DNA of 64,000 nt from Prevotella sp. GTDB taxonomy: Bacteria; Bacteroidota; Bacteroidia; Bacteroidales; Dysgonomonadaceae. The stretch covers positions 64,001-128,000 of the forward strand of contig JAITVV010000095.1 of NCBI GenBank assembly GCA_031285625.1, given 5' to 3'. Shown here one piece after another: positions 3,952 through 61,894 of this stretch. Both the position numbers and the translations under genes were made by a program. The notes below the pieces were generated by a model. The model did no database searches. It saw only the letters and a list, made by a program, of their open reading frames with translations, and had not been told where the DNA came from. Positions within the stretch are counted from its first letter, which is position 1, and each line of letters starts with the position of its first letter.

Positions 3952-3953
3952 TT

Positions 3954-40603: not shown

Positions 40604-40610
40604 GATAAGA

Positions 40611-41675
40611 ATGGAGGAAAAAGAAACTTCTACAGAAATAGAAATTGATTTTGTATCACTTTTTAATAGATTGTGGCATAAAAAGAAATTTATTATTAAA
40701 TTTATTATTGCTGGATTTCTATTAGGCATTATTGTTGCGTACAGCATGCCTAAAGAATATACAACAACTGTCCTGTTAACACCCGATTCTCAAGCTAATA
40801 ACTCCGGAACAATGGGCTCTCTGGCAGCTCTAACAGGAATCAATATTGGCAATAACCAAGTGGATGCATTAACCTCACCTAATCTATACCCAACAATTCT
40901 TAACTCCACGACTTTTATTCAAGGATTATTTGATATACCTGTAAAAGACAAAAGAGTGAATACAACACTGTATACCTATATAAAGGAATACCAGAAAGTT
41001 CCTTGGTGGAATTATATTTTAGGTGCTCCGACTCGCATTAAGAATCTTTTCTCCTCTGATAACCCTGTGGATTCTATAGATACTGCCAATGGACAAAGAA
41101 TATCGAGGGGAGATATGTTTGTAATCGAAACATTAAGAAATATGTTAACTGTAAATTCGGAGAAAAAAACAGGAATTACAGCCATTGAAGTTACTATGCA
41201 AAGTCCTGAAATATCTTCTTTTATAGCAGATACACTTGCATCTTACCTTCAGTCATATATAATCGAATATCGGACTCAGAAAGCCAGATTAGATTTAGAA
41301 TATTCCGAAAGACTATATTTGGAGTCAAAAGAAAATTATTATAAAGCTCAAGCAGAATTAGCTTCATTTACAGATGGTAATATGAATGTTGTATCAGCCA
41401 CATACAGGACTACTCAAGAAAGGCTGCAAAACGAAGCAACTCTGACTTATTCTATTTATAATCAAACAGCCCAACAATTACAAATAGCTAAAGTAAAGGT
41501 GCAAAATACAACACCTGTATTTACAATAATACAGCCCGCTATAGAACCATTGTATGCATCAAAGCCTAGAAAGAAAATAATAATTATTGGTTTTCTATTC
41601 GTTGCATTCGTTGCATCGGCTGCATATATTTTAGGTAAAGACATCTGGGTAGAAATAAAAAAACAAATAAAATAA
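40611..41675 (+). CDS. wzz: Chain-length determinant (polysaccharide co-polymerase)
   Basis: N- and C-terminal TM helices, coiled coil, PVFTIIQPA..P...SKP. Confidence 0.88.
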   Translation: MEEKETSTEIEIDFVSLFNRLWHKKKFIIKFIIAGFLLGIIVAYSMPKEYTTTVLLTPDSQANNSGTMGSLAALTGINIGNNQVDALTSPNLYPTILNSTTFIQGLFDIPVKDKRVNTTLYTYIKEYQKVPWWNYILGAPTRIKNLFSSDNPVDSIDTANGQRISRGDMFVIETLRNMLTVNSEKKTGITAIEVTMQSPEISSFIADTLASYLQSYIIEYRTQKARLDLEYSERLYLESKENYYKAQAELASFTDGNMNVVSATYRTTQERLQNEATLTYSIYNQTAQQLQIAKVKVQNTTPVFTIIQPAIEPLYASKPRKKIIIIGFLFVAFVASAAYILGKDIWVEIKKQIK

Positions 41676-41679: not shown

Positions 41680-42657
41680 ATGCAAAAAGTATTAGTTACT
41701 GGAGCCGATGGCTTTATAGGATCTCATCTGACTGAAATGCTTTTAGAAAAAGGATACACAGTAGTGGCTTTAACGTACTATAATTCATTTAATGACTGGG
41801 GATGGCTAGAAGGTAGTAATAATCCAAATTTAACTGTCATTAATGGAGATATACGTGATCCTCACTTTTGCAAGCATATAACTAAAGATATTGATATCAT
41901 TTTTCATTTAGCAGCACTCATCGCAATACCTTATTCATATGTAGCACCTGACAGCTATGTAGATACGAACATAAAAGGTACATTAAATATTTGTCAGGCA
42001 GCTAAGGAAAATAATGTAAAAAAAATTTTAGTAACATCTACCTCAGAAGTTTACGGAACGGCAAAGTATGTTCCTATTGATGAAGATCACCCCAAACAGC
42101 CACAATCGCCCTATTCTGCCACAAAAATTGGCGCTGATGCAATAGCTCTTAGTTTCTATAATGCTTTCGAACTTCCAGTAGTTATAGTCAGACCATTCAA
42201 CACATATGGACCACGACAATCAGCAAGGGCTATTATTCCTACCATCATATCTCAAATAGCGAGTGGAATCAGAGAAATCAAACTAGGCGATCTTACCCCC
42301 ACTCGAGATTTCAATTTCGTCAAAGATACTTGCAAAGGATTTATTGATTTGGCAAAATGCGATGCAGCTATCGGACAAGAAGTAAATATAGCGAGCAATT
42401 ACGAAATATCAATGAGAGATACATTGGAATTAATAGCCCAAATAATGGGAGCCGATGTAAAATTTATAGAAGATAAACAACGTTTACGTCCCAAAAGCTC
42501 AGAAGTATTTAGACTATGGGGAGATAATACAAAGATAAAAGAGCTGACTGGTTTCACCCCTGAATATGACATTGAAAGAGGCCTCAAAGAAACCATTGAA
42601 TGGTTTACTCAACCTGAAAATTTAAAAAAATATAAAGCAAATATATACAATGTATAA
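41680..42657 (+). CDS. legB: NDP-GlcNAc 4,6-dehydratase, LegB-like
   Basis: GADGFIGSHL, HLAALIAIPYSY.AP, SPYSATK, RPFNTYGPRQSARA. Confidence 0.88.
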   Translation: MQKVLVTGADGFIGSHLTEMLLEKGYTVVALTYYNSFNDWGWLEGSNNPNLTVINGDIRDPHFCKHITKDIDIIFHLAALIAIPYSYVAPDSYVDTNIKGTLNICQAAKENNVKKILVTSTSEVYGTAKYVPIDEDHPKQPQSPYSATKIGADAIALSFYNAFELPVVIVRPFNTYGPRQSARAIIPTIISQIASGIREIKLGDLTPTRDFNFVKDTCKGFIDLAKCDAAIGQEVNIASNYEISMRDTLELIAQIMGADVKFIEDKQRLRPKSSEVFRLWGDNTKIKELTGFTPEYDIERGLKETIEWFTQPENLKKYKANIYNV

Positions 42658-43792
42658 TGACTTTATCAAATATGTAAGAAAGATATATAGTACCCATGAT
42701 TTTATACCTCTCCATGCTCCGTATTTTTCTGGAAATGAAAAGGTATATCTGGAAGAGTGTATTGATACTACATTTGTATCTAGTGTAGGTAAGTTTGTTG
42801 ATCGCTTTGAAGAAATGGTTAAAGCATATACCAATACCAAACGAGCCGTTGTTTGTGTTAATGGAACAAATGCGCTTCATCTTGCATTACTACTGGTAGG
42901 AGTTGAACGCGAAGACGAAGTCTTAACTCAAGCACTAACATTTATTGCTACAGCTAATGCTATCAGTTATGCAGGTGCGGCACCTGTTTTTATTGATGTT
43001 GATAAAGATACTATGGGTCTTTCGCCTGATAAAGTCAGAGATTGGCTCGTAAAGAATACTGAAATGCATTCAGGAGCATGCTACAATAAAAAAACGGGAC
43101 GTAGAGTCAAAGCATGTATACCAATGCATACCTTTGGGCATCCAGTTAAGATAGATCAGTTAGCTAGTATATGTAGAGAGTATAATATAGAGTTAGTTGA
43201 AGATGCTGCAGAAAGCCTAGGCAGCTTTTATAAAGGTCAACATACTGGTACTTTTGGGAAGATTGGAATTCTAAGCTTCAATGGAAATAAAACCATTACA
43301 ACAGGTGGTGGCGGGATGTTGCTTTTTCAGGATGAAAAGTTAGGTGATTATGCCAAACATATCACAACTCAGGCCAAGGTTTCTCACCAATGGGAATTTG
43401 TACACGACCATATTGGTTATAATTATCGGATGCCAAACATAAATGCAGCCATAGGCTGTGCACAAATGGAAAATCTAGATACAATACTGGCTAATAAAAG
43501 AGAAACAGCTTCAATGTACAAAGAGTATTTCCAAAGTATAAATGATATATCTTTTTTCACCGAGCCTGAAGATTCTAGATCTAACTATTGGCTAAATGCA
43601 ATCTTATTAAAAGATAAAGACTCCCGAGATAACTTTCTGAAATATACGAACGATAATGGTGTAATGACTCGCCCTATATGGACATTAATGAGCAAATTAC
43701 CCATGTTTAAAGATTGCGAAACTGATGATTTAACAAACACAATCTGGTTTGAAGAAAGAGTAGTTAATATACCAAGTAGTGTGAGAATATGA
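42650..43792 (+). CDS. legC: PLP-dependent aminotransferase, LegC-like
   Basis: IPLHAP, VSSVG, EDAAESLG, SFNGNKTITTGGGG, GYNYRMPNINAA. Confidence 0.9.
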   Translation: MYNDFIKYVRKIYSTHDFIPLHAPYFSGNEKVYLEECIDTTFVSSVGKFVDRFEEMVKAYTNTKRAVVCVNGTNALHLALLLVGVEREDEVLTQALTFIATANAISYAGAAPVFIDVDKDTMGLSPDKVRDWLVKNTEMHSGACYNKKTGRRVKACIPMHTFGHPVKIDQLASICREYNIELVEDAAESLGSFYKGQHTGTFGKIGILSFNGNKTITTGGGGMLLFQDEKLGDYAKHITTQAKVSHQWEFVHDHIGYNYRMPNINAAIGCAQMENLDTILANKRETASMYKEYFQSINDISFFTEPEDSRSNYWLNAILLKDKDSRDNFLKYTNDNGVMTRPIWTLMSKLPMFKDCETDDLTNTIWFEERVVNIPSSVRI

Positions 43793-44415
43793 CAAAAAAT
43801 TTAATTCTCGTTGGTGGTGGAGGGCACTGTAAATCTGTTATAGATGCAGCTTGTAGTGCAGGATTCCATATTTTAGGAGTTCTGGATACTCTGGAGAATA
43901 TAGGTAAGTCTATTCTTGATGTAAAAATTATCGGTGACGACTCTTTAATAAATGAGTATATCGGTTCTGCTATGTTTGTAGTAACTGTTGGCTCCATAAA
44001 AAAAACTGCTCTGAGAATAAAACTACATAACATGATTATTGATGCTGGAGGAAGGCTTGCAACCATAGTAGCCTCTACTGCTCATGTATCGAAATATGCC
44101 ACAATAGATGAAGGATCAGTTATATTACACAATACATGTATTAATGCTGATGCCAGAATTGGTAAGAGTTGTATTATAAATACCTTTGCTAATATCGAAC
44201 ATGAAGCTGAAATTGGAGATTTCTCACATATTTCAACAGGAGCTATGGTTAATGGAGCCTGTAAAATTGGAAAATCGGTTTTCATAGGAAGCCAGAGTGT
44301 CTTAGCCCAATGTGTATCTGTAGCTGATTATGCAATAGTTAGCGCAGGTACCTTTGTTAGTAAGAATATTCAGGAGAAGGGGATATATGCAGGAAATCCT
44401 ATGCGTAAATTTTAA
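43789..44415 (+). CDS. PglD/NeuD family sugar acetyltransferase
   Basis: GGGGH N-terminus, hexapeptide repeats, IEHE. Confidence 0.88.
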   Translation: MTKNLILVGGGGHCKSVIDAACSAGFHILGVLDTLENIGKSILDVKIIGDDSLINEYIGSAMFVVTVGSIKKTALRIKLHNMIIDAGGRLATIVASTAHVSKYATIDEGSVILHNTCINADARIGKSCIINTFANIEHEAEIGDFSHISTGAMVNGACKIGKSVFIGSQSVLAQCVSVADYAIVSAGTFVSKNIQEKGIYAGNPMRKF

Positions 44416-44423
44416 TAATTAAA

Positions 44424-45434
44424 ATGAATAGAACAATCATTATTGCAGAAGCAGGAGTTAACCATAATGGATCAATTGATTTAGCAAAAGAATTAATTGA
44501 TGCAGCTGTTGAAGCAGACGTTGATTATATTAAGTTTCAAACCTTCAAGGCAAAAAAACTCGCTTCAAAAACTGCTCAAAAAGCGGAATATCAAGATCGC
44601 AATACAAGCTCGGCTAATAATGAATCTCAACAAGAGATGTTATCTAAACTGGAACTAAGTGTAGATGACCATAATGAGTTGATTGCCTATTGCCAGAAAA
44701 AGAATATCCGTTTTTTCTCAACAGCCTTCGATCTAGAGAGTGTGGATTTTTTAGCTAGCCTCAATTTAGGATTATGGAAGATACCCTCCGGAGAAATAAC
44801 TAACTATCCATATATCAGACGTATTGCACAAACAAAAGAACCGATTATATTGTCAACTGGCATGTCAGATATGGATGATATAAAAGCGGCGATACAAGTA
44901 CTCGTTGAGAATGGGGTTAACAAACAAGAGATAACTGTTTTACACTGTAATACAGAATATCCTACACCTATGAAAGACGTAAATCTGAAAGCAATGAACC
45001 ATATTGCAAAAGAACTAGGTGTAAGAATAGGATATTCGGATCACACATTGGGAATAGAAGTTCCCATTGCTGCTGTAGCTTTGGGTGCGACTATCATTGA
45101 GAAGCACTTTACGTTGGATCGAGAGATGAAGGGGCCAGACCACAAAGCATCCCTAGAACCCAATGAATTAAAGGCGATGGTAAAAGCCATCAGAAATATA
45201 GAAGAAGCTTTAGGTATTGAAGATAAAAAGGTCTCAGAATCAGAACAAAAGAATATAGCAATTGCCCGAAAAAGTATTGTAGCAGCACTACCCATAAAAA
45301 AAGGAGAGATTCTTACGGAAGAAAATATCACGGTAAAAAGACCAGGAACAGGGATATCTCCGATGAAGTGGGAAACTGTGGTAGGACAAAAAGCTATACG
45401 TGATTTTGAAGAAGACGAGTTGATAGAGTTATGA
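44424..45434 (+). CDS. neuB: Nonulosonic acid synthase (NeuB/LegI)
   Basis: IAEAGVNHNG, KFQTF, GYSDHT, IEKHFTLD, GPDH, SAF domain. Confidence 0.95.
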   Translation: MNRTIIIAEAGVNHNGSIDLAKELIDAAVEADVDYIKFQTFKAKKLASKTAQKAEYQDRNTSSANNESQQEMLSKLELSVDDHNELIAYCQKKNIRFFSTAFDLESVDFLASLNLGLWKIPSGEITNYPYIRRIAQTKEPIILSTGMSDMDDIKAAIQVLVENGVNKQEITVLHCNTEYPTPMKDVNLKAMNHIAKELGVRIGYSDHTLGIEVPIAAVALGATIIEKHFTLDREMKGPDHKASLEPNELKAMVKAIRNIEEALGIEDKKVSESEQKNIAIARKSIVAALPIKKGEILTEENITVKRPGTGISPMKWETVVGQKAIRDFEEDELIEL

Positions 45435-45437
45435 GCC

Positions 45438-46595
45438 ATGCGTAAAATATGTGTTATTACAGGAACCAGAGCTGAGTATGGTATATTAAGCCATTTGATG
45501 CAGTTAATTCAGAGTAGTACTACTCTGAAGCTACAGATTATTGCAACCAATATGCATCTCTCACCCCAATTTGGACTTACTTATAAAGAAATTGAAAACG
45601 ATGGTTTCTTTATAGACAAAAAAGTTCAAATGCTTCTTTCTGCAGATACAGCAAATGCAACAGTAAAATCTGTAGGCTTAGCTACAATTGGCTTTGCTGA
45701 TGCTTTTGAAGAATTACAACCTGACCTTATTCTTATATTAGGTGATCGGTATGAGATGCTTGCAACAGCAACAGCAGCATTGTTGTATAAAATCCCGGTT
45801 GCTCATCTTCATGGAGGAGAGATCACCGAAGGCGCCTATGATGATGCTATACGCCATGCTATCACAAAGCTGAGCCATCTTCATTTTACATCGACAGAAG
45901 AATATCGAAAAAGGGTTATTCAGTTAGGAGAGAATCCGGATAGAGTTTTTAATGTTGGAGCGTTAGGTGTAGAAAATGTACTCAACACACCATTGATGAG
46001 AAAGACAGAATTGGAAACCAGTATGAGTTTTAATTTAGGAGAAAAATGTTTATTGGTAACATTTCATCCAGTTACTCTGGAAAGCAGTTCTTCTCTAAAA
46101 CAATTTCAAGATTTATTGGCTGTTTTGGAAGAATATACGGATTATAAGATTGTTTTTACAATGCCAAATTCGGACACCGAAGGTCATTCAATAATGACTC
46201 TTATAGATGATTTTGTCCAAAATCATAATAATTCGATTTCATATACTTCATTAGGTAAACTAAGATATTTATCTTTATTGCAATTTGTGGATGCTGTTGT
46301 GGGAAACTCGTCCAGTGGTATTATCGAAGTACCCAGTATGGGTATACCAACGTTAAATATAGGAAACAGACAGAAAGGGCGAATTCAAGGAGCAGGCATC
46401 ATTAATTGTGAACCTGATTATGCTAGTATCAAAGAAGGAATGACCAAAGTACTTTCACCTGAGATAAAAGAAATAGCAAAAAAAAGAATAAATCCTTACA
46501 TGAAAGAAGGGACATCTAGTACTATCCTAAATATTCTCCAAGAAATTAATTTGGATAGAATGGTCAACAAAACTTTTTATGATTTGAGAGAATGA
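45438..46595 (+). CDS. neuC: Hydrolysing NDP-sugar 2-epimerase (NeuC/LegG)
   Basis: TGTRAEYG, GDRYE, HLHGGE, TFHPVT, GNSSSG, IGNRQ.GR. Confidence 0.94.
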   Translation: MRKICVITGTRAEYGILSHLMQLIQSSTTLKLQIIATNMHLSPQFGLTYKEIENDGFFIDKKVQMLLSADTANATVKSVGLATIGFADAFEELQPDLILILGDRYEMLATATAALLYKIPVAHLHGGEITEGAYDDAIRHAITKLSHLHFTSTEEYRKRVIQLGENPDRVFNVGALGVENVLNTPLMRKTELETSMSFNLGEKCLLVTFHPVTLESSSSLKQFQDLLAVLEEYTDYKIVFTMPNSDTEGHSIMTLIDDFVQNHNNSISYTSLGKLRYLSLLQFVDAVVGNSSSGIIEVPSMGIPTLNIGNRQKGRIQGAGIINCEPDYASIKEGMTKVLSPEIKEIAKKRINPYMKEGTSSTILNILQEINLDRMVNKTFYDLRE

Positions 46596-47632
46596 CAGAA
46601 TATTCTAAATATATAATATCAAATAAAGCTTCTATCCAAAAAGCCCTATTATCATTGAATCAATTATCAAGTGAGGCTCTTACTCTATTTGTTATCGACG
46701 AAAATGAAGTAATGATTGGAACATTAACTGATGGTGATACTAGAAGGAAATTGATAGAAGGCTGTAACCTGTCAGATTCTGTACTATCTGTAATGAATCC
46801 AAATTTTCATTATGTACGAAAGAATGATATAAATGTTCAAAAAATTAAACTTATCAAAGAGAAAGGAATAGTCTTGATTCCGGTATTAGATGAGAAAAAC
46901 CGGATTTGTCAAATATTTAATTTAAAGAAGAAAAAATCCATCCTCCCGCTTGATGTAGTTCTCATGGCAGGGGGAAAGGGAGAAAGGCTTAGACCTTTAA
47001 CTGAAAATATGCCAAAGCCTCTTTTGCTAGTTGGAGATAAGTGTATTATCGATCATAATATAGACCGTTTGATCGAATTTGGCATTAATAATATAAACGT
47101 AACCGTTAATTACCTGAAAGAGCAAATAATAGATCATTTCAGAAAACCTCGGAATGAGACCCGAATAAACTGCATCACTGAGCCATGTTATTTAGGGACA
47201 ATCGGATCGGTAAAGTTTATCGAAACTTTTCATAATGATTATATCTTAGTAATGAATTCTGATTTGTTCACTAATATAAATTATGAAGATTTATTCTTAC
47301 ATTTTATAAACAATAATGCAGATATGTCAGTGGTAGCTGTACCTTATACTGTATCTATTCCATATGGGGTATTCGACCTTGATGGACGAAATATTAAAGG
47401 TATTCAGGAAAAACCGGTATTTAACTATTATGCAAATGCAGGTATTTACCTGTTCAAGAAGGAGCTATTAAAACATATACCAGACAATGAGTTTTTTAAT
47501 GCTACTGATTTTATCGATGTATTAGTAGAGAAAGGATATAATGTTATCCGGTTTCCGTTAACTGGTTATTGGATAGATATAGGTAAACATGAGGAATATA
47601 AAAAAGCTCAAGAGTTAGTAAAACATATGTAA
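46592..47632 (+). CDS. CBS-domain nucleotidyltransferase (PtmE/LgaF-like)
   Basis: GTLTDGD.RR CBS pair; MAGGKGERLRPLT...PKPL; WIDIG. Confidence 0.9.
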   Translation: MTEYSKYIISNKASIQKALLSLNQLSSEALTLFVIDENEVMIGTLTDGDTRRKLIEGCNLSDSVLSVMNPNFHYVRKNDINVQKIKLIKEKGIVLIPVLDEKNRICQIFNLKKKKSILPLDVVLMAGGKGERLRPLTENMPKPLLLVGDKCIIDHNIDRLIEFGINNINVTVNYLKEQIIDHFRKPRNETRINCITEPCYLGTIGSVKFIETFHNDYILVMNSDLFTNINYEDLFLHFINNNADMSVVAVPYTVSIPYGVFDLDGRNIKGIQEKPVFNYYANAGIYLFKKELLKHIPDNEFFNATDFIDVLVEKGYNVIRFPLTGYWIDIGKHEEYKKAQELVKHM

Positions 47633-47633
47633 T

Positions 47634-48356
47634 ATGAAGATATTAATAACAATCTGTGCTAGAGGCGGTTCGAAAGGTATTCCGGGTAAGAATATAAAGG
47701 CTATAGGGAATAAACCTCTTATTGCATATACAATTGATATTGCAAACCGATTTAAGAAAAAGTATTCTCAGACAACTATAGCATTATCTACTGACTCTGA
47801 GGAGATCAGAAAAATTTCCTCTGAATATGGACTTGAATCTGAATATTTAAGACCCGATTTTTTAGCAGGAGATAAGGTTGGAAAGATTGATGCAATTAAT
47901 GATGTTCTTTTTTTCTATGAGAAGAAATACAAGACCAAGTATGATTACATTCTGGATATGGATGTTACTTCTCCATTAAGAAATTTGGAAGATATAGAAA
48001 ATGCCCTAGCAATTATCCAAGATGACTTACAGGCTGTAAATCTATTCTCAGTTAGTGATCCTGATCGGAATCCCTATTTCAATATGGTAGAAAAAAAAGC
48101 AGATGGATACTATTCATTAGTAAAAAATGTTGATAATACTGTTCTCACACGTCAGTCTGCACCTGAGGTATATTCTCTCAATGCTTCTTTTTATATCTAT
48201 AGGCGCTGCTTTTTCGACTTAGGCTATAAAGGAGCAATAACAGATAAGAGTTTGATATACAAGATCCCTCATATATGTTTCGATTTAGATCATCCAATTG
48301 ACTTCGATTTTATGACCTACCTTATTGATATGGGTAAACTAGATTTCAATTTATGA
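47634..48356 (+). CDS. CMP-nonulosonate synthetase (NeuA/LegF/PtmB-like)
   Basis: ICARGGSKGIPGKN, TSPLR, RNPYFNMVE, RQSAP. Confidence 0.92.
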   Translation: MKILITICARGGSKGIPGKNIKAIGNKPLIAYTIDIANRFKKKYSQTTIALSTDSEEIRKISSEYGLESEYLRPDFLAGDKVGKIDAINDVLFFYEKKYKTKYDYILDMDVTSPLRNLEDIENALAIIQDDLQAVNLFSVSDPDRNPYFNMVEKKADGYYSLVKNVDNTVLTRQSAPEVYSLNASFYIYRRCFFDLGYKGAITDKSLIYKIPHICFDLDHPIDFDFMTYLIDMGKLDFNL

Positions 48357-49273
48357 ATATATTGATTATGGGATTAGGTTCCATTGCACGAAAACATATT
48401 GATGCACTTAAATTGCTCAATATAGAATATACCCTGTATGCATTGAGGTCTTCAGTTAGTGCACTAGAAGAGGCTGGAATAAAGAATGTATATTCTTTAA
48501 AAGAAATTGAAGAAATAAAAATTTCATTTGCAATAATTTCCAATCCCACATCAAATCACAAAGACACAATACTAAACCTATTAGATCTTAATTGTCCTCT
48601 ATTTATAGAAAAACCCTTATATCATAAATTAGATGTGGATGAGATCCTAGCCGATGTAAACAAAAGAAATATATTAACCTATGTTGCGTGTAATCTCAGA
48701 TTTTTAGATTCACTATTGTTTGTAAAAGACGAAATTATTCAAAATAGGAAAAGACTAAACGAGGTAAATGTATATTGCGGGTCATATTTACCATCATGGA
48801 GAGATACAGATTATAAAATATCTTATAGTGCAATACCATCCTTAGGAGGCGGGGTACATATCGATTTAATTCATGAACTGGATTATTTATATTGGATATT
48901 TGGAATCCCGAATATGGTTCATTCTGTATTTAGGAATGTGTCAAGCTTGAATATAGATGCTTATGATTACGCTAACTATAATCTAATTTATGACCAATTC
49001 TGTGCTAATGTTATACTAAATTATTTTAGAAAAGATTATAAACGAACATTTGAATTAGTATTTGAAAATGAAACATGGCTAGTCGATTTAGCCTGTAATA
49101 CTGTATCTTTGAACGGGAATATAATATATAAATCCAATCAAAAGATAATTGATACATATGCTTCTCAAATGAATTATTTTTTGGATTTGATAAGAACGAA
49201 CAAGAATTCGTCAATAAATACTATTAATGATGCATATGATGTATTAAAAATATGTTTAAATAAACCAGAATAA
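48353..49273 (+). CDS. Gfo/Idh/MocA oxidoreductase (PtmF/ElaA-like)
   Basis: GLGSIARKH, IEKP, YLPSWR, GGGV..DL.HELDY. Confidence 0.85.
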   Translation: MNILIMGLGSIARKHIDALKLLNIEYTLYALRSSVSALEEAGIKNVYSLKEIEEIKISFAIISNPTSNHKDTILNLLDLNCPLFIEKPLYHKLDVDEILADVNKRNILTYVACNLRFLDSLLFVKDEIIQNRKRLNEVNVYCGSYLPSWRDTDYKISYSAIPSLGGGVHIDLIHELDYLYWIFGIPNMVHSVFRNVSSLNIDAYDYANYNLIYDQFCANVILNYFRKDYKRTFELVFENETWLVDLACNTVSLNGNIIYKSNQKIIDTYASQMNYFLDLIRTNKNSSINTINDAYDVLKICLNKPE

Positions 49274-49275
49274 TT

Positions 49276-49902
49276 ATGAAATTAAGTTGCAACACAGAAA
49301 AAGATCAGTTAATAGAAATGTTGATCAGACAGTTGTCTAATTTTTTTATAATTAGTGAAAAAGAAATTGATATATTATGGAAAGAATTTGATCAGGTTTG
49401 GCTACGATTATATAAATGTATTAAATTAGTTGATAACAAATACTTTATCATAGACGGAATTCCGGTCATTAATCCATATCACTCAGGACAATATCTAATA
49501 TATTTATACTTTTATAGTAATATATGTTCAAGCAACAACGAAAAACAATTGGCTGATAAAATATATTACTTAAACAAAATAATGCACTCTTGTGATATTT
49601 ATCATGAAGTAAGTCTGCCTGAGTCTTTTTTCCTCGAACATCCTGTAGGAACAGTACTAGGTAGAGCTAAATATGGAAATAGATTCTTTGCTATGCAAAA
49701 TTGCACCATAGGTGGAAACAAAGGGCACTATCCTATAATAGGAAACAATGTAAGACTCTATTCAGGAGCTAAAGTCTTAGGAAATTCTATTATTGGCGAT
49801 AATGTTACAGTAGCAGCTAATACCTATATTAAAGATACAAATATACCCGATAATGCTACAGTTTTTGGAACTTCACCGCATTTGACTATAAAATATTTAT
49901 AA
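49276..49902 (+). CDS. Serine-acetyltransferase-like left-handed beta-helix acyltransferase
   Basis: HPVGTVLGRA.YG, QNCTIGG, YPIIGNNV hexapeptide repeats. Confidence 0.82.
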   Translation: MKLSCNTEKDQLIEMLIRQLSNFFIISEKEIDILWKEFDQVWLRLYKCIKLVDNKYFIIDGIPVINPYHSGQYLIYLYFYSNICSSNNEKQLADKIYYLNKIMHSCDIYHEVSLPESFFLEHPVGTVLGRAKYGNRFFAMQNCTIGGNKGHYPIIGNNVRLYSGAKVLGNSIIGDNVTVAANTYIKDTNIPDNATVFGTSPHLTIKYL

Positions 49903-49907
49903 AAGCC

Positions 49908-50651
49908 ATGATACTAAAAGACAAAGTCATTATAGTTACCGGAGGTTCTGGTTTAATAGGAAAAGCAATCTTGGAAGATATTTGCAAGAAAGGAGGTCTT
50001 GCCATAAATGCAGATATAAACGTACAATCAGATTTAGAAAAAAAAGTAATCAATGTTGATATAACCAATCAAGAATCAATTGTCGATGCAATAAATCAAA
50101 TTAATAAATACTTCGGAAAAATAGATGGACTTGTGAATAATGCTTATCCTCGGACAAAGGATTGGGGTGCTAAATTTGAAGATATTAGTTTTACGTCTTG
50201 GCAAGAAAATGTAGATATTCAAATGAACAGTACATTTTATTTCTGCCAGCAAGCCTTAGCTGTAATGACTAACCAATCCTTCGGTTCAATTGTAAATATT
50301 GGATCAATCTATGGTGTAGTAGGTAATGACTTCACTTTATATGAAGACTACGGAGGCACCTCACCTGCAGCATATGCAGCAATAAAAGGAGGAATAATAA
50401 ATTTAACTAGATATTTAGCTTCATATTATGGGCCACATAATATAAGGATCAATTGTGTATCACCTGGAGGAATACTAGATGAAAAGAATCAACATCCATC
50501 CTTTATATCAAAATATAATAGGAAAGTACCTATGAGGAGAATGGGAAGCCCTGACGATATTGCTCCTGCTGTATCTTTCATGCTCTCTGATGAAGCAAAA
50601 TATATTACAGGCCAAAATTTAATTGTAGACGGAGGTTGGACAACTATATAA
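49908..50651 (+). CDS. SDR oxidoreductase (PtmA/ElaC-like)
   Basis: TGGSGLIG, NNAYPR..WG, SIYG, YAAIKGG, VSPGG. Confidence 0.88.
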   Translation: MILKDKVIIVTGGSGLIGKAILEDICKKGGLAINADINVQSDLEKKVINVDITNQESIVDAINQINKYFGKIDGLVNNAYPRTKDWGAKFEDISFTSWQENVDIQMNSTFYFCQQALAVMTNQSFGSIVNIGSIYGVVGNDFTLYEDYGGTSPAAYAAIKGGIINLTRYLASYYGPHNIRINCVSPGGILDEKNQHPSFISKYNRKVPMRRMGSPDDIAPAVSFMLSDEAKYITGQNLIVDGGWTTI

Positions 50652-50668
50652 TTATTAAAACAAATAAT

Positions 50669-51859
50669 ATGAACAAAATATTAATTCTCTTTATTTCTTT
50701 GTTTTTTCTTTCTTGTTCAGCACAAGAAGATAATCTTGATGCATTAGATATAAAAAGTTTTAACAGCCAAAATGTAAATAAGATAACCGAAACCAAAATA
50801 TTCGACTCCAATGATATTGCAGGAAAACCTTATTCAAGAATTCCAACTATAATAATAGCCAATAATGGCAACATACTAGCTGCTTGTGAAAAAAGAAAAG
50901 ACGAACATGATAAAGGAGAAATTGATATACTACTTGCCTTAAGCGAAGATGGAGGTAAAACTTATTTTAAAACAGTCTTATTCGAGTACGAGGCAGAACA
51001 TGGAAGAAAAATGAACCCTTGCTTTGTTATTGATAGAAATGGTACTCATGGTAAAACTGGACGCATATATTGTTTTGTCATATCGAGTGTACCGACATGG
51101 AAACTATCTTATGAACTTGAGAAAGGGGAAGCAAATACTCTTTATCGATATTCTGATGACGATGGATTAACCTGGAGCGAAACCTTAACTCTTGAGCATA
51201 AAATACCTAAAGAATGTACAATATTTGGTCCATCCCCTTCGAACGGTATTCAATTAGAAAACGGCACATTAGTTATCCCGGCCTTCATAACTCTTACTGA
51301 TCGATCATCCCGAACAGGAATTATATTTAAAACTCCTAATGGAAAGTGGGAGTTTAACTATATAAACCTACAGCAAAGCAAAGAGGAAAATGAATCTACA
51401 ATAATAGCACTAGGGGAAGGAAATCAAATTCTGCTAAATACCAGAACAGAAAAATATAATAAGGACAGACATATATATTATAGTAATAATATAGAAGAAG
51501 GAATGACAGGGAAAGAGATAACATGGAATATTCATTCTTCAAACTCCAAATTTAGAATATCGGGGCCATGCCAAGGGAGTTTAGAGGTAACATTGAGCGA
51601 TTTACGACCGGTTTATCTGTTTTCTCATCCATATAATGATAATCCTCGAAGGAGAATATGTATTTGGAAGTCTTTCGATTTAGAACAATGGACTCCGACA
51701 TACCTTTTAACAACTGGTCGCTCTGCAGGCTATTCTGTGCTCACATATTACAAAGATAAACTACTGGCTATATATGAGAGTGATCCTAATGTTTTTGAAT
51801 GTACAATTCAAGATTTATCACCATTGTTGCCACTTTTGACGAATGATGAATATAAATGA
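50669..51859 (+). CDS. GH33 sialidase-like lipoprotein
   Basis: Lipobox FLSC; YSRIP; Asp boxes SEDGGKTY, SDDDGLTW, SFDLEQW; ENE, LNTR, PRR, AGYS, IYE. Confidence 0.85.
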   Translation: MNKILILFISLFFLSCSAQEDNLDALDIKSFNSQNVNKITETKIFDSNDIAGKPYSRIPTIIIANNGNILAACEKRKDEHDKGEIDILLALSEDGGKTYFKTVLFEYEAEHGRKMNPCFVIDRNGTHGKTGRIYCFVISSVPTWKLSYELEKGEANTLYRYSDDDGLTWSETLTLEHKIPKECTIFGPSPSNGIQLENGTLVIPAFITLTDRSSRTGIIFKTPNGKWEFNYINLQQSKEENESTIIALGEGNQILLNTRTEKYNKDRHIYYSNNIEEGMTGKEITWNIHSSNSKFRISGPCQGSLEVTLSDLRPVYLFSHPYNDNPRRRICIWKSFDLEQWTPTYLLTTGRSAGYSVLTYYKDKLLAIYESDPNVFECTIQDLSPLLPLLTNDEYK

Positions 51860-53141
51860 ATTTATAAAGAGAGAGGATGACGCAAATCTTTTTTCTATAA
51901 AGTATAAAAATATTCCGTTATGGGAATTAGTACGTTTCGATATATTCAATGCATATATTGATCGATGCCAAGTATCTGATTGGAAGATATCTGAGCGTCT
52001 AAGAAATTGGCTAAGAACAATCTGTGGCCTTATTTTTTCCAATCCATTATTTTTCTTGTCAAAGAAGAAAACATTGATAATAAGAGCCAGTAGAAAGAAC
52101 ATAGATGACAAAAAGCTCGTAGACCCATATACTATTGATATAGAAGAAGATATTTTAAATCGACCTTTGGGGGCTTACGAGTCACATACTGACTTTATTT
52201 TCAAAAAACTATTTACTCCGAACATCATTATCCTCGATATTATTACTAAATACATATCGAAGATTTTATTAAAAGTGAGAAAGAAGAGTTTTTTTAATGA
52301 TGAGCTAAACGACCAAATAAAATTCATATGTAGTATATTCCCTGAAAAAGAATTTTCAACTCTTATAGAAAATAAAATAATGGAGTTCTATATAGAGCAA
52401 AAGCTTTATTCTTTTATCCTTAAATATCGAAAACCTGAAAAAATTTATTTGACAAATTATATATATAAGCAAGCCCTAATTTATTCTGCGAAGTTGCTTG
52501 ATATTCAAGTAATAGAGATACAACATGGCTTTATATCACCTCTTCTTGCCGATTATCATTTTCCAAAAGTAAAGAAAGACAGCTTACTATTATTTCCAGA
52601 TGAATTCTACTACTTGAGTGAATACCTGAAATATAAAGTTGATTTACCATTGTCTGAAATCTCAATAAAACCCTTTGAAGGTAATTTTTTTCGAAAAAAA
52701 TTAAAAATGAGTAAATCAATGGATAAGAATCCAAATTCTTTATTATTTGTATCAACAAACACTAAAGAATTTACCTCTTTTATGGAGAATTTCTGTAAAA
52801 TATCTAAAGAGAATAAATCCGGATTCAAAATCTATTTTAAACCACATCCTTTTGAGTATGCCTTAATAGATACGGCTTATATAAATTCATTAAAAGAGAA
52901 TTATAACATAATTTTTATTGAGAAAGATGAAGACATCTATCAATATATAGGGAAGATAAAATATGTTATCAGCACATATTCAACTTTACTATTTGAAGCA
53001 TTAGAGTTTGGCAATGCTATTTACACCGTAAAACTAAACGGACATGAATCGATTATGCCTTTTGTAGAAAATAATTTAATGAACTTAGTTAACAGTCCTC
53101 AAGAATTATATGATTCAATAATTTACGATAATAAGATGTAG
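51843..53141 (+). CDS. Putative nonulosonate (sialyl-type) transferase
   Basis: EIQHG, FPD, FKPHP, YSTLLFEA motifs of CMP-sugar GT-B enzymes; position before wzx. Confidence 0.65.
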   Translation: MMNINEFIKREDDANLFSIKYKNIPLWELVRFDIFNAYIDRCQVSDWKISERLRNWLRTICGLIFSNPLFFLSKKKTLIIRASRKNIDDKKLVDPYTIDIEEDILNRPLGAYESHTDFIFKKLFTPNIIILDIITKYISKILLKVRKKSFFNDELNDQIKFICSIFPEKEFSTLIENKIMEFYIEQKLYSFILKYRKPEKIYLTNYIYKQALIYSAKLLDIQVIEIQHGFISPLLADYHFPKVKKDSLLLFPDEFYYLSEYLKYKVDLPLSEISIKPFEGNFFRKKLKMSKSMDKNPNSLLFVSTNTKEFTSFMENFCKISKENKSGFKIYFKPHPFEYALIDTAYINSLKENYNIIFIEKDEDIYQYIGKIKYVISTYSTLLFEALEFGNAIYTVKLNGHESIMPFVENNLMNLVNSPQELYDSIIYDNKM

Positions 53142-53163
53142 TTTTTGGTTGGAAATAAAAATA

Positions 53164-54435
53164 ATGATATCTAGATATTTAAATAATAAACTATTCCGAA
53201 ATGGAGTAATATTTTCATTCTTCTCATTCTTCAATAGTGGTGTGAGTTTTTTTCTTATTATAATTTTAGCCAAATATTTTTCCCCTGCAGAATATGGATA
53301 TTTAAATCTTTTCACTACAATCACGACTATCTTAAATCTTCTAATGACATTAAATACTTCTGGATATTTTTCCATCTCATTCTTTAAATTAGAGAAAGAA
53401 GATTTACAAAGAATTTTGAGTGGTGTAGTCCTAGTTATTTTTAGTGTTTCAACATTTCTCACCTTACTAATTTTTATTTTCTCTGATATATCTGTAAAAT
53501 ATATTGGACTGGAATCTAAATATCAGTTTCTAGCATTACTTGTTTGCTTCTTTCAAGCTTTTATAACACTAAGACTAGAAATCTGGAGACTGGAGGAGAA
53601 ACCGATAATATATGGAGTCTTCTCTTCGCTTTTTAGTCTCTTGAGCTTTGGTATTACACTTCTGTTTGTTATATATTTTAATTCTGGTTGGGTAGGACGG
53701 GTAGATTCTTTTGTTATTGTAACCACCTTTTTCTCTTTAATATCCATTATAATGTTAATTAGAGACAGGTATACAATAAAAATCAAACCTCGAAAAAAAA
53801 TCTTATATAACGCATTATCTTATGGTCTTCCCTTGATACCTCATTCTATCTCCACATGGGTACGCCAAGGGGGAGACAGATACCTGATTAATTATTTTCT
53901 AGGAATTAATCAATTAGGCTATTTTAGCTTTGCCTTCAATGTATACAATATAATTCTAATACTTGGATCCGCATTTAATGCTACATATTCTGTTAACTTA
54001 TTTAAGATCCTATCAGAAAATGAAAAAACAGGCGTAATAATACTTCGTAAACAAATAAAGATAATGTGCATGTTTTTTACGATTGCATCCCTTCTTATTT
54101 TCTTATTTGTATACTTTCTTATTCCTATCTTCTTTCCAAAATATGAACCATCGACTCAATACTTGTTCCCTCTAGTAATGGCCGGTCTTTTCCAATGCTT
54201 ATACTTATGCTTCGTAAATTTTTTATTCTTTTACAAAAAGACACGAATTCTTATGTATATAACTGTCTCTATTTCATTCCTTCATTTTATTTTATCCTTT
54301 GCATTAACAAGGTACGGAATGATATATACAGCTTATATCACAATGTTCACCAATTTTTTAATTTTCTTAATAGTTGCTATATACTCAAATAAATATATTA
54401 ACTTTAAAATTCTTTCCAGAAAAAATATTTCATAA
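53164..54435 (+). CDS. wzx: Polysaccharide flippase
   Basis: Many TM helices; SPAEYG, YGLPLIPH, DRYLI...LG.F. Confidence 0.88.
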   Translation: MISRYLNNKLFRNGVIFSFFSFFNSGVSFFLIIILAKYFSPAEYGYLNLFTTITTILNLLMTLNTSGYFSISFFKLEKEDLQRILSGVVLVIFSVSTFLTLLIFIFSDISVKYIGLESKYQFLALLVCFFQAFITLRLEIWRLEEKPIIYGVFSSLFSLLSFGITLLFVIYFNSGWVGRVDSFVIVTTFFSLISIIMLIRDRYTIKIKPRKKILYNALSYGLPLIPHSISTWVRQGGDRYLINYFLGINQLGYFSFAFNVYNIILILGSAFNATYSVNLFKILSENEKTGVIILRKQIKIMCMFFTIASLLIFLFVYFLIPIFFPKYEPSTQYLFPLVMAGLFQCLYLCFVNFLFFYKKTRILMYITVSISFLHFILSFALTRYGMIYTAYITMFTNFLIFLIVAIYSNKYINFKILSRKNIS

Positions 54436-54438
54436 TAT

Positions 54439-55236
54439 ATGAACTATTCTAAAATATCAATAATAACCGTAGTCTACAATATGGCAGATAAGATAGAAAG
54501 TACAATCTTATCAGTTCTAAATCAGACATATCCAAATATTGAATATATTATTATTGATGGGGGTAGTACAGACGGGACAGTCGACATTATTAAAAAATAT
54601 GAAAGTCAGTTAGCATATTGGATCAGCGAACCTGATAAAGGGATATATAACGCTATGAATAAAGGAGTTATAAAAGCAACTGGCGTTTATTGTAATTTTA
54701 TGAATGTAGGAGATAAATTCTATGATAACGAGGTACTCAACAATGTTTTTTCAGTAAACAGACGTGAAGATATTCTACATGGTATAACCGTTACTGATAA
54801 TGGAACTATAACCCTTCCAATATCACCTGAGAGATTATCTCTGTCATTTTTTTACAAGACAAGCTTGGGACATCAGGCAACATTTATAAACAGGGAATTA
54901 TTAAAAGAATATCCTTATGATGAAAGCTATAAAATAGTAGCAGACGCCAAGTTTTTCATTGTGACTTTAATTATAAATAATAAAACATATGCAACACTAC
55001 CATTCAAGATTTGTTTATATGATACAAAAGGGGTAAGTAGCAATTTAGAGAACACAGATATGGAATTGAAGCTGATTTTCAGAGATTTATTTCCACCCAG
55101 AATTGTAAAAGATTATGAACTAATGGAAAATTATCTCAACCCTTTGTTCCGTATATTATATCCCATAACTCAAAGTTTCCTATTTCAAAAATATCTCTTT
55201 CCTATATCAAAAAAAATAAAAAAGATAGTAGGTTAA
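54439..55236 (+). CDS. Glycosyltransferase family 2
   Basis: ISIITVVYN, IDGGSTDGT, SEPDKGIYNAMNKG, HQATF. Confidence 0.92.
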   Translation: MNYSKISIITVVYNMADKIESTILSVLNQTYPNIEYIIIDGGSTDGTVDIIKKYESQLAYWISEPDKGIYNAMNKGVIKATGVYCNFMNVGDKFYDNEVLNNVFSVNRREDILHGITVTDNGTITLPISPERLSLSFFYKTSLGHQATFINRELLKEYPYDESYKIVADAKFFIVTLIINNKTYATLPFKICLYDTKGVSSNLENTDMELKLIFRDLFPPRIVKDYELMENYLNPLFRILYPITQSFLFQKYLFPISKKIKKIVG

Positions 55237-55254
55237 TATAAATTCACATAGACA

Positions 55255-56445: not shown

Positions 56446-56477
56446 TTTCTAAATTAATTAAAATCATTAAATATTTT

Positions 56478-58719: not shown

Positions 58720-58731
58720 AAAGTTATTGTT

Positions 58732-59947: not shown

Positions 59948-60937
59948 ATGGAAAAACAAAGAGATCTTTCTCTCGATTTTACAAGGGGCATAGGCATCCT
60001 ATTCGTTATTCTTTCACATAATTTACCCAATTATTATATTCTTAGTGCCTTTTGGAATAGACAAGCTGTACCTTTACTAGCGATAATTACGGCAGGATTT
60101 ACTTATGCAGCATTTCAAAGAGGAAGAACTTTAGAGCAATATTATTCAAAAAAAACCATTATAAAAAAATTTAAAAAAATATTTGCTCCATTTCTAATAG
60201 TGATTTTAATACAATGCACTATTACCTATTTTCTAGATCCCGGTTTTGATATAAAAGATGTTATCCGTTTAGGAGGGATGGGACCTGGTTCTTATTTTCC
60301 ATGGTGCTATTTGCAGTATTGGCTATATCTACCACTTATTATTTGGCTAGTAGACACTTTATCTATAAAAAAATCATTTATAATAATATTGTCTATCTGT
60401 ATTTGTTATGAAATTCTATGTTGTATAATTAATATAGACCCTTTAATTTATAGGTTATTATCATTCCGCTATTTAGTAATACTTTACTTAGGATGCATAG
60501 TTAGAAAACTCAATTTAAAAATAAATCCCATCATAATGATATTGGCACTTGCTGGATTTATTTATTTATTTTTAGTTTCTTATGCAAACTTGAACACAGA
60601 GCCATTTTTATTAAATGTATGGGAAACACATCATTGGCCTAGTGCCTTCTATGCTCTATTCTTATTTCTCTTCATTTCTACAATTCTTTATAAAAAAGTA
60701 AATCACCTCAAAATATCTGATTTTATAACTAAAATAGGTAGTTATTCATACGAAATATTTATCTGTCAAATGTTTATATTCACTTTTCTCGGGTGGGACA
60801 GGTTAAATAAGGGATTGGCATTCATAGATAATCTTTATGTAAGATACACAATATTTGTTATTGTAACAACATGTTTTAGCATAGCTCCTATATATATATA
60901 TAAAACTCGTATTAAAAATATTATTTTTAGAAAATAA
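59948..60937 (+). CDS. Acyltransferase family 3 (OafA-like) membrane protein
   Basis: R..LD..RG..IL.V...H, AVP, G.YSY.I; multiple TM helices. Confidence 0.8.
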   Translation: MEKQRDLSLDFTRGIGILFVILSHNLPNYYILSAFWNRQAVPLLAIITAGFTYAAFQRGRTLEQYYSKKTIIKKFKKIFAPFLIVILIQCTITYFLDPGFDIKDVIRLGGMGPGSYFPWCYLQYWLYLPLIIWLVDTLSIKKSFIIILSICICYEILCCIINIDPLIYRLLSFRYLVILYLGCIVRKLNLKINPIIMILALAGFIYLFLVSYANLNTEPFLLNVWETHHWPSAFYALFLFLFISTILYKKVNHLKISDFITKIGSYSYEIFICQMFIFTFLGWDRLNKGLAFIDNLYVRYTIFVIVTTCFSIAPIYIYKTRIKNIIFRK

Positions 60938-60977
60938 ATAGAATATATTTGTTTCCAATTTTTAAAACAAGCTATCT

Positions 60978-61889
60978 ATGGATAAGATATTTATTTTATT
61001 ACTAATTATTTTAATATGCACATCTTGCTCAAATGATGAGATCGACCATATAGAGTTAACAGCTCCAATAAACGTTACACTGCCTAAGAATCCTAAAACA
61101 CTTAATATTCTGGCTATAGGAAATAGTTTTACTGAAGATGCAACAACTCTTTTACCCTCTATCTTAGAAGATTTAGATATAAAGAATGTAACACTAGGAA
61201 GACTCACATATAATAGTGGATCCCTTGAAAACCATTACATGTTCTATAATAACAAATCCAATGTATATCAATTTTCAATAACAGAAAACAATATTTGGAA
61301 TGATATATCAAATACCTATTCAATTAATGAAGCAATAAAATATACAGATTGGGATATCATTGTTATTCAACAAGCGTCATATAAAGCCGGAATATATAAT
61401 AGTTTCCAACCATATCTTAATGGACTACTAAATAATATATACAGAGACTGCCACAATAAAAATGTAGTTTTCGGATGGCACTTAACATGGTCATATTCAG
61501 CTGATTGCAACCGACCCCAATTTTCAGATTACAACTACAGCCAAGAGAGGATGTATAATGCTATTATTGAAACAACTACATCCATGATAAAAGATACTGG
61601 TATTGCATTAATAATCCCATCGGGAATTACAATTCAAAATTTGCGGAACACCTCTTTAAACAATCCGCCTAAAGACATAACAAGAGATGGATTCCACATT
61701 GATTTAGGTATCGGTCGCTATGCCCTTGCATATACTTGGTTTCAATCTATAATAACTCCATGTTTTAATAGACAGATACAAGAAAGTTCATATATTCCAC
61801 CTTTTACAGAGGGTATTAAAGTTAATAAAGATAACCTTCAAATCGTATTGGATGTTGTACAAAAATCTTGTAAAGATCCACTTAAATAA
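60978..61889 (+). CDS. SGNH-fold lipoprotein (DUF4886-like)
   Basis: Lipobox CTSC; ILAIGNSFT, WDIIVIQQAS, TWSY, RDGFH. Confidence 0.8.
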   Translation: MDKIFILLLIILICTSCSNDEIDHIELTAPINVTLPKNPKTLNILAIGNSFTEDATTLLPSILEDLDIKNVTLGRLTYNSGSLENHYMFYNNKSNVYQFSITENNIWNDISNTYSINEAIKYTDWDIIVIQQASYKAGIYNSFQPYLNGLLNNIYRDCHNKNVVFGWHLTWSYSADCNRPQFSDYNYSQERMYNAIIETTTSMIKDTGIALIIPSGITIQNLRNTSLNNPPKDITRDGFHIDLGIGRYALAYTWFQSIITPCFNRQIQESSYIPPFTEGIKVNKDNLQIVLDVVQKSCKDPLK

Positions 61890-61894
61890 ACCTT

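Follow-up and report, generated by a model that had tools for sequence, protein, structure and literature searches.

Gene Organization and Lipoprotein Signal

The window analysed in this study is a stretch of 64,000 nucleotides from Prevotella sp. (assembly GCA_031285625.1, contig JAITVV010000095.1, positions 64,001 to 128,000 of the forward strand). The gene under study lies on its + strand at 50669..51859, among genes for the biosynthesis of a legionaminic acid (Leg)-type nonulosonate. It encodes a lipoprotein of 396 aa, P0001, which resembles the sialidases of glycoside hydrolase family 33 (GH33) according to its translation, Pfam and Protein Data Bank (PDB) matches, AlphaFold2 (AF2) model and Foldseek search. 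The frame was open from the ATG at 50669 to the stop at 51859, without an internal stop. In the list of open reading frames (ORFs), a longer version starting at TTG 50636 was also possible; this start was disfavoured because the N-termini of the homologs aligned with the ATG start, from which the protein begins with MNKILILFISLFFLSC. As the sequence-only reading of this DNA had described, the gene stood 17 nt behind a gene for a short-chain dehydrogenase/reductase (SDR) and overlapped the next gene. The ORF of this PtmA-like SDR ended at 50651, and the downstream ORF, that of P0121, started at 51843, giving an overlap of 17 nt.

The segment 50669..50740 (+) was read as a signal peptide, a lipobox (LFFLS-C16) and an acidic stretch. 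The lipoprotein signal, MNKILILFISLFFLS-C16, was followed by SAQEDNLD, with the codon of C16 at 50714-50716 (+), in agreement with the lipobox and the C-SAQEDNLD sequence named earlier. The lipobox Cys was found in 19/20 aligned family members, and the sole exception was an N-terminally truncated sequence. The surface-export signal (LES) of Capnocytophaga canimorsus lipoproteins was described as C-X-K-(D/E)2 or Q-A-(D/E)2, in which position matters (PMC5080379), and that of Bacteroides thetaiotaomicron as CS(D/E)2, which also drives packing into vesicles (PMC6222051). The C-S-A-Q-E-D of P0001 is LES-like and is an exact match to none of these motifs. By alignment count, the exact C-X-K-(D/E)2 was present in 7 of 19 relatives, and 16 of the 19 carried two acidic residues or more between +2 and +6 counted from the Cys. 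Judged from these motifs, surface exposure is likely for the relatives of subfamily B (described below) and plausible for P0001.

The Leg Biosynthesis Genes

All the genes from 38204 to ~61889 of the window were on the + strand. The Leg-type nonulosonate pathway occupied 41680..48356 (+; NCBIfam and Pfam), in the order LegB dehydratase, LegC aminotransferase, NeuD-family N-acetyltransferase, NeuB synthase, NeuC hydrolysing 2-epimerase, PtmE-like nucleotidyltransferase and cytidine monophosphate (CMP)-nonulosonate synthetase. The NCBIfam scores exceeded the curated cut-offs for LegB (504.9; cut-off 475), LegC (565.8; 420), the NeuD-family enzyme (173.9; 160.8), NeuB (510.2; 399.65) and NeuC (480.4; 235.9), and the PtmE-like and CMP-transferase genes were identified by Pfam NTP_transferase and CTP_transf_3. 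Three tailoring genes followed at 48353..50651 (+; Pfam), encoding a GFO/IDH/MocA oxidoreductase, a hexapeptide acetyltransferase and the PtmA-like SDR, the last of which scored 175.8 bits with the NCBIfam PtmA model, under the cut-off of 350. An ElaB-ElaA-ElaC cassette has been described for 8-epi-Leg (PMC13656337), and the window order of CMP-transferase, oxidoreductase and SDR recalls it in gene order alone. At 1e-10, the oxidoreductase had no match in the PDB. The SDR had a single match, the short-chain dehydrogenase 6uh2 (1e-43), and the CMP-transferase matched Neu5Ac (N-acetylneuraminic acid) synthetases only; none of these PDB matches links the cassette to ElaABC.

A weak scan of the + strand from 43000 to 62900 found no terminator-like site, and the P0001 gene, encoded within the biosynthesis genes, is probably co-transcribed with them. 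Among the window ORFs scanned with Pfam (23 + 40 ORFs of at least 80-100 aa, with a few listed ORFs omitted), no member of the DHDPS/NanA, NanE, SusC or SusD families was found; the remaining window genes were housekeeping genes by Pfam. The sequence-only reading had placed the gene inside a nonulosonic-acid operon in a window free of nan and SusCD genes. Both parts were borne out, the former by the five models that passed their cut-offs and the latter in the ORFs scanned.

Sialidase Fold and Active Site

The expected GH33/BNR membership of P0001 was confirmed by HMM search, with 50.8 bits for Pfam BNR_3 (cut-off 27) and 47.2 bits for BNR_2 (cut-off 31.4). The BNR model matched residues 161-170 alone with 19.4 bits, under its cut-off of 27, and no NCBIfam model reached its cut-off on P0001. 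A sequence search of the PDB returned 60 distinct sequences at E <= 0.01, all of which were sialidases, trans-sialidases, KDNases (enzymes acting on 2-keto-3-deoxynononic acid, KDN) or fusions built on these. The top matches were the metagenomic Sialidase26 and the NanH of Clostridium perfringens, with E ~1e-15.

In the phmmer alignments, the six catalytic candidates named from the letters all fell on residues that are catalytic in solved sialidases. They are R57 (in SRIP; codon 50837-50839), D81 (EHDKG; 50909-50911), E242 (ENEST; 51392-51394), R259 (LNTR; 51443-51445), R327 (the first R of PRRR; 51647-51649) and Y355 (AGYS; 51731-51733), with all codons on the + strand as placed by translation. 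Over 104 aligned homologs, D81, E242, R327 and Y355 showed no variation, and R57 and R259 were conserved in at least 90%. In an alignment of 20 clade sequences, D81, E242, R259, R327, Y355 and E370 were invariant. At the RIP site, P0009 and P0010 of subfamily A read YTIAP and FTKAP, with D81, E242, R259, R327 and Y355 intact in both, and RGP replaced RIP in P0006 and in the protein of a metagenome contig, L044.

Known sialidases possess 3-4 Asp boxes (table in PMC2716378), and three had been reported for P0001. Two of them are canonical, S92-E-D-G-G-K-T-Y99 and S162-D-D-D-G-L-T-W169. The third, S335-F-D337-L-E-Q-W341, was one residue short, and its S, D and W were invariant. Two further boxes near 221-227 and 272-286 were degenerate.

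The AF2 model, built with 104 homologs, was all-beta, with a predicted local distance difference test score (pLDDT) of 92.2 and a predicted TM-score (pTM) of 0.91. In the Foldseek search with this model, all of the 50 matches listed contained a sialidase-type domain, and the best had an E of 9.6e-23 and a query TM-score (TMq) of 0.74. The matches listed included sialidases, trans-sialidases, a KDNase and one receptor-sialidase fusion; C. perfringens NanH ranked first, followed by Sialidase682, Sialidase26, BTSA, the NanH of Tannerella forsythia, the trypanosomal enzymes and the KDNase. Structure prediction thus gave a confident sialidase propeller, in which the catalytic residues were matched by alignment only. 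As read from the alignments and the model, P0001 is a GH33-type six-bladed beta-propeller with an intact catalytic set, and it is apparently a functional GH33-type enzyme.

Residues specific to the P0001 group in the alignment included K82, G112-R113, M115, F119, S189, T200 and G217, among others. R113 was not exclusive to the clade, being present also in the nan-locus enzyme L007. Because of this, and because pocket positions were not assignable, no claim on specificity is drawn from these residues.

Relatives and Their Gene Neighbourhoods

The homolog search with P0001 returned 214 database proteins at E <= 1e-5. Nine proteins (P0002-P0010), 48-75% identical to P0001, constitute subfamily A, and about a dozen with 28-35% identity constitute subfamily B; generic sialidases lay beyond. 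Pattern scans yielded 37 loci in species-representative genomes, 46 in JGI metagenomes and 4 in IMG/VR, and the flanks were read by tblastn with the window locus proteins and by Pfam scans. L047 and L049 carried the same protein as L009 and were left out of the count, and L008 was too short. On this basis, 6/7 distinct clade members with readable flanks abutted leg genes, in three different locus positions, and the neighbourhood survey came out in favour of co-occurrence with leg genes.

In the window, the gene lies behind the PtmA-like SDR gene, four genes after legF. In two loci of subfamily A, Dysgonomonas sp. HGC4 (L005) and a metagenome contig (L042), whose proteins share 51-57% identity with P0001, it directly follows legF; wzx comes next in L005, and a GT-B-like gene intervenes before wzx in L042. 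In subfamily B, the gene lies between a Polysacc_synt_2 dehydratase gene and legC in a Prevotella metagenome-assembled genome (L009) and in L050, with legH, legI, legG, legF and ptmE downstream. In L043, it comes after ptmE and before wzx and a PF07388 polysialyltransferase-like gene. The seventh member, L046, had the Polysacc_synt_2 dehydratase gene upstream as in L009 and L050, and its contig stops at the gene. Members with only 28-35% identity were also found beside leg genes (L009, L043, L049 and L050). The position of the gene varied between subfamilies sharing <= 35% identity, which indicates that the linkage to leg genes has outlasted rearrangement.

The flanks scanned in L005, L009, L042, L043 and L050 contained no gene for a nanA-type lyase, an epimerase, a transporter or SusC/D. 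The sequence-only reading would have been contradicted by closest homologs in nan loci; instead, L005, L042 and the subfamily B members named above stood beside leg genes, and only the next group out, Clostridia enzymes with ~30% identity, was nan-linked, by one enzyme read in a nan locus. The leg-linked placement is real and more than chance, and the clade as a whole is linked to loci for Leg biosynthesis.

Two of these loci carried additional genes. In Dysgonomonas sp. HGC4 (L005:1636-5405), the stretch between legC and legH held genes for an SDR, a KAS III-like enzyme, a protein matching no family and a polysaccharide deacetylase, an insertion which suggests an N-acyl variant of Leg. In L043, a GATase/His_biosynth pair resembling HisH/HisF was encoded at L043:769-3889, presumably of the kind used for acetamidino groups, and the PF07388 polysialyltransferase-like gene after wzx was located at L043:7662-8723.

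Phylogeny, Rarity and a Phage-Borne Relative

The main tree was built with IQ-TREE from 62 rows under LG+G4 with a midpoint root, and its outgroup was formed by returns of the homolog search, not by curated characterised enzymes. Subfamily A (9 rows) was supported by ultrafast bootstrap (UFBoot) and SH-like approximate likelihood ratio test (SH-aLRT) values of 100/100, and subfamily B (14 rows) by 100/99. Together with the L044 protein, the two subfamilies formed one group of 24 rows (100/99), apart from the other 38 sialidase-family rows including L007. A second, quick tree of 69 rows concurred, and the next group out in it comprised Clostridia enzymes including the nan-locus enzyme L007. By these trees, P0001 belongs to a rare, well-supported clade of Bacteroidota lipoproteins separate from the sampled nan-locus enzymes, which is newly described here.

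Among 401 phylum genomes sampled, a relative of P0001 at E <= 1e-20 was found in the window's own genome only. In a like-drawn sample of the phylum, LegC passed its cut-off in 40/401 genomes. The pattern scan found clade members in just three further species representatives (L005, L008 and L009). Since 40 of 401 genomes had LegC and one had the enzyme, the P0001-type enzyme is an uncommon accessory of Leg loci rather than a part of the core pathway.

The 6.6-kb metagenome contig L044 (also L045) encoded a protein of 988 aa at 1857-4823, whose residues 590-940 were 31% identical to P0001 and retained the Arg, Asp, Glu, Arg, Arg and Tyr positions. Its neighbours, one on each side, matched phrog_22135 (2e-111) and the endolysin phrog_435 (Amidase_3). 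In both trees, the protein joined the clade near subfamily B on a long branch. Its sequence and neighbours suggest a phage tail fibre or spike that bears a head related to the clade. Since the target of a tail enzyme has to be a glycan of the bacterial surface, this fits the proposed substrate class. Phage collections added one unannotated record with 29.6% identity and four weak IMG/VR loci with 23-26%. A known receptor-destroying tail enzyme of phage is the K1F endosialidase of GH58 (1v0e; PMC2716378). Compared with it, the L044 domain is GH33-like and not GH58, and it keeps the Tyr, Glu and Asp set.

Other Genes of the Locus and the Genome

The polysaccharide locus starts at 38204..41675 (+; Pfam) with a Wza-like exporter (Poly_export + SLBB, 799 aa) and a Wzz-like chain-length determinant (354 aa). 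Directly upstream of the Wza-like gene, a SIS_2-domain protein of 197 aa was encoded at 37424-38017.

The gene following that of P0001 (51843..53141, +) encodes P0121, a soluble protein of 432 aa with a predicted GT-B fold of the KpsS/TagB-like kind. Its match to PF05159 (Capsule_synth) was weak (E 0.014; 15.3 bits, under the cut-off of 20). Its Atlas neighbours were annotated as capsule polysaccharide biosynthesis, sialyltransferase family and TagF-like, with TM-scores of 0.80-0.86, and a PHP stretch was present. The transferases of T. forsythia for pseudaminic acid (Pse) and Leg were described as TagB-like proteins of 442-445 aa with an HP motif (PMC5420450). In addition, the gene behind the L042 homolog encodes a P0121 relative with 23% identity (E 3e-5). 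These weak leads make P0121 a candidate nonulosonate transferase, the role suggested earlier for this gene.

A Wzx-type flippase (Pfam Polysacc_synt) was encoded next, at 53149..54435 (+). The segment 54439..59850 (+; Pfam) contained the genes of one family 2 glycosyltransferase (GT2), three family 4 glycosyltransferases (GT4) and a hydrophobic 397-aa protein, in the order GT2, GT4, 397-aa protein and two GT4. The 397-aa protein, P0122 (56478-57671, +), has long hydrophobic stretches in its sequence and no family match, and it is a candidate Wzy polymerase. A membrane acyltransferase (Acyl_transf_3) and a DUF4886 protein followed at 59948..61889 (+; Pfam). This pair could be the split counterpart of the fused AT3-SGNH enzymes, which we take to be O-acetyltransferases, and by this analogy it may O-acetylate the polymer. 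The guanine plus cytosine (GC) content was 0.28-0.33 over 46-62 kb, against ~0.35-0.40 elsewhere in the window; by analogy, the low value is typical of exchangeable serotype cassettes. The fall in GC began inside the Leg genes and ended at a convergent CitMHS/TrkA_C transporter gene (62357-63985, -).

The NeuB of the window was the sole NeuB match in the genome; if P0001 acts on a nonulosonate made by the cell itself, the substrate would therefore be the product of this locus. Two other BNR_2 proteins were encoded in the genome, neither of them in a nan locus. One, of 368 aa (G000:C35:66930-68036; L089:11931-13037), scored 279 bits with BNR_2 and had no BNR_3 match. It adjoined PhoH, cupin and prephenate dehydratase/aromatic amino-acid genes, had no nan neighbours and lay on a very long tree branch (3.8). 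The other, of 547 aa (G000:C52:191343-192986; L099:8344-9987, -), scored 53 bits and lay in a SusC/SusD polysaccharide utilization locus (PUL) with two GH43 and one GH2, the usual catabolic setting, in contrast to P0001. The NanE matches in the genome were below the cut-off, and there was one gene of the GlcNAc 2-epimerase family. For the nanA model, the best genome match reached 131 bits against a cut-off of 382, which was attained by only 1/14 control genomes.

Comparison with Known Systems

The best structural match of P0001 was the small sialidase NanH of C. perfringens (8ub5, 8um0 and 9dku), with E of 1e-22 to 9e-22, a TMq of 0.74 and a target TM-score (TMt) of 0.80-0.81. Both proteins consist of one catalytic propeller and are similar in size, and the alignment pairs the RIP Arg, the Asp, the Glu, the other two triad Arg residues and the Tyr. 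Unlike P0001, NanH is a Neu5Ac enzyme with no lipobox in the aligned chain, the identity was 24-25%, and P0001 lies in a biosynthesis operon. The catabolic sialidases of Bacteroidota, BTSA (4bbw), T. forsythia NanH (7qy9/7qxo) and the metagenomic Sialidase26 (6myv/6mrv), come from the same phylum or habitat and have the catalytic domain in common with P0001 (sequence E of 1e-15 to 1e-11; TMq of 0.73-0.75). Their chains of 519-553 aa matched from ~residue 175-200, after an N-terminal domain that P0001 is without. Accordingly, residues 48-372 of P0001 correspond to ~174-530 of these chains, and P0001 has no N-terminal accessory domain. The three enzymes presumably belong to nan/Sus catabolic loci, in contrast to the leg loci of the P0001 clade.

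Outside the clade, the nearest group in both trees was formed by Clostridia sialidases of 514-544 aa from Zhenhengia (L007), Niameybacter (L006) and Cellulosilyticaceae (L010). L007, of 544 aa, had 31% identity with P0001 in an alignment of 338 positions, and the block YKYSDDDGLTWSE was common to both. The L007 gene was flanked by genes for NanE, a DHDPS-type lyase, a ROK kinase, YhcH, an RpiR regulator and an ABC transporter; the neighbours of L010 were not nan genes.

A further enzyme, the pseudaminidase of Pseudomonas aeruginosa (2w38), is listed among the Asp-box propellers in a table of PMC2716378. It sets a precedent in that a six-bladed Asp-box propeller of the sialidase type was assigned to a nonulosonate of bacteria and not to Neu5Ac. 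It was neither among the 60 PDB sequence matches of P0001 nor among the 50 Foldseek matches listed, and Pse differs from Leg in stereochemistry.

With regard to the operon context, BcsZ, PslG, AlgL and ExoK are extracytoplasmic hydrolases or lyases that degrade the polymer of their own exopolysaccharide operon. Compared with P0001, they have other folds and act on other sugars, and none is of GH33 or acts on a nonulosonate. They serve here as a working analogy, and no membership is claimed.

Proposed Function and Alternative Explanations

The favoured reading, to which we assign a probability of about 0.5, is that P0001, anchored in the outer membrane and probably exposed at the cell surface, is a retaining glycosidase of the GH33 type that has specialised for the Leg-type nonulosonate of its own operon and would cut this sugar after export. 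The fold, catalytic residues, lipoprotein signal, operon position, leg linkage and separate clade of P0001 are established, and from them we infer its activity, Leg specificity, surface topology and physiological role. By analogy with GH33, the Arg triad of R57, R259 and R327 would hold the keto-sugar by its C1 carboxylate, E242 would activate Y355 for its attack on C2, and D81 would be the acid/base. The polysaccharide would be assembled by Wzx/Wzy and exported by Wza, after which P0001 would cut Leg ketosidic bonds in the cell's own polymer. The outcome would be the trimming of terminal Leg, or the shortening and release of chains, like that by the hydrolases of other exopolysaccharide operons. 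All the Leg5,7Ac2 glycans on an array were resistant to the sialidases of Arthrobacter ureafaciens and C. perfringens (PMC11356810). Because these glycans resist the sialidases tested, a Leg-bearing organism that needs to cut it would need a dedicated enzyme. Action on the cell's own legionaminate-type sugar had also been proposed by the sequence-only reading; it stands as a prediction, now with the intact GH33 propeller, the leg-operon embedding and the leg-linked closest homologs behind it.

Several observations weigh against this reading. From the catalytic residues alone, Leg and Neu5Ac are not distinguishable as substrates. The Clostridia sister group, with ~30% identity, included an ordinary nan-locus enzyme. 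Part of the synteny among the relatives has been inherited, and their loci do not count as fully independent cases. Leg glycans in general do not require the P0001-type enzyme, as the genome sample indicated. R57 was present in 18/20 aligned relatives, with Ile in P0009 and Lys in P0010. Moreover, Leg may be terminal in the polymer, which would make it an exo substrate, or part of the backbone, which would make it an endo substrate. Finally, the acidic pair of P0001 stands at +5/+6, against +3/+4 or +4/+5 in the tested motifs. The acidic residues after the Cys, which the earlier reading took as a signal for surface export, lie in a LES-like stretch, 1-2 residues later than in the tested motifs.

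The four rival explanations considered are all less supported than the favoured reading. In the first, P0001 would remain on the periplasmic side of the outer membrane as a housekeeping hydrolase that cuts nascent or stalled Leg polymer for chain-length control or unjamming, and the shifted acidic pair would suit this location. BcsZ, PslG, AlgL and ExoK presumably illustrate this manner of action. The gene lies within the biosynthesis part of the locus, next to wzx and the putative transferase gene, and the C. canimorsus sialidase SiaC is a periplasm-facing lipoprotein (PMC5080379). However, 7 of the 19 relatives have the exact export motif, and the phage-borne relative must work from outside the cell. 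We regard this location as unlikely. The nan-locus sister enzyme and the full catalytic set of Neu5Ac sialidases would suit an ordinary exo-sialidase for Neu5Ac or KDN, used for foraging or for scavenging free nonulosonate that the adjacent CMP-synthetase could activate. On this view, the P0001 gene would be a hitch-hiker in a variable, low-GC polysaccharide locus. Consistent with this, the gene directly follows the CMP-synthetase gene in L005 and L042, and the GC content of the locus is typical of exchanged cassettes. This reading is more doubtful than the periplasmic hydrolase, since the window ORFs and the flanks of the leg-linked relatives, as far as scanned, included neither nanA or nanE nor transporter or SusCD genes, the leg linkage holds over two subfamilies and three gene orders, and the other BNR proteins of the genome lie elsewhere, one of them in a SusC/D PUL.

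Two further possibilities concern what happens in the active site. The trans-sialidase of Trypanosoma cruzi transfers Neu5Ac between glycans, and by analogy P0001 could be a trans-glycosidase which passes Leg from Y355 to a sugar acceptor, moving Leg or a Leg-ended chain to another surface glycan. Retaining GH33 chemistry is common to both, trans-sialidases were among the Foldseek matches (E ~1e-19 to 1e-18), and the lipid anchor would hold P0001 at the cell envelope. No sequence feature was tied to an acceptor site, however, the best matches were hydrolases, and the locus already has a cytoplasmic candidate transferase, so that transfer appears improbable. Most improbable of all is a non-catalytic nonulosonate binder, acting as a lectin-like receptor or an assembly factor. 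The loss of the first triad Arg in 2/20 relatives and the 3/5 Asp boxes that are degenerate or shortened would agree with such a role, but D81, E242, R259, R327 and Y355 were invariant in 20/20 relatives, as expected under selection for catalysis.

Significance of the Leg-Linked Clade

Legionaminic acids coat many bacteria. In the literature searched, with subscription journals not covered, the words legionaminidase and nonulosonidase were absent, no enzyme cutting Leg was named in the titles or abstracts that pair legionaminic acid with sialidase or GH33, and no title or abstract described a sialidase gene inside a nonulosonate biosynthesis locus. P0001 is a good candidate to be the first enzyme for the cleavage of legionaminic acid, the bacterial look-alike of sialic acid. 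Its clade is small, well delimited and consistently linked to leg genes, and its active site is intact, which makes it a concrete and cheap candidate for expression and assay. If it proves to be an ordinary Neu5Ac sialidase, the finding shrinks to an odd gene placement.

More broadly, and at somewhat less than even odds, the clade could represent a dedicated family of legionaminidases, the first of its kind, in which a GH33 branch was re-tooled for the 5,7-diacylamido nonulosonates of bacteria. It would have been inherited with the Leg pathway as a make-and-trim module, and its domain would have been borrowed by phages as a receptor-destroying tail enzyme. An active P0001 would be a reagent for the analysis of Leg glycans and a tool enzyme for glycans that resist the sialidases tested. 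Its activity would also link phage tail enzymes to the Leg-type coat, and it would mean that some Bacteroidota edit their own sialic-acid-like coat.

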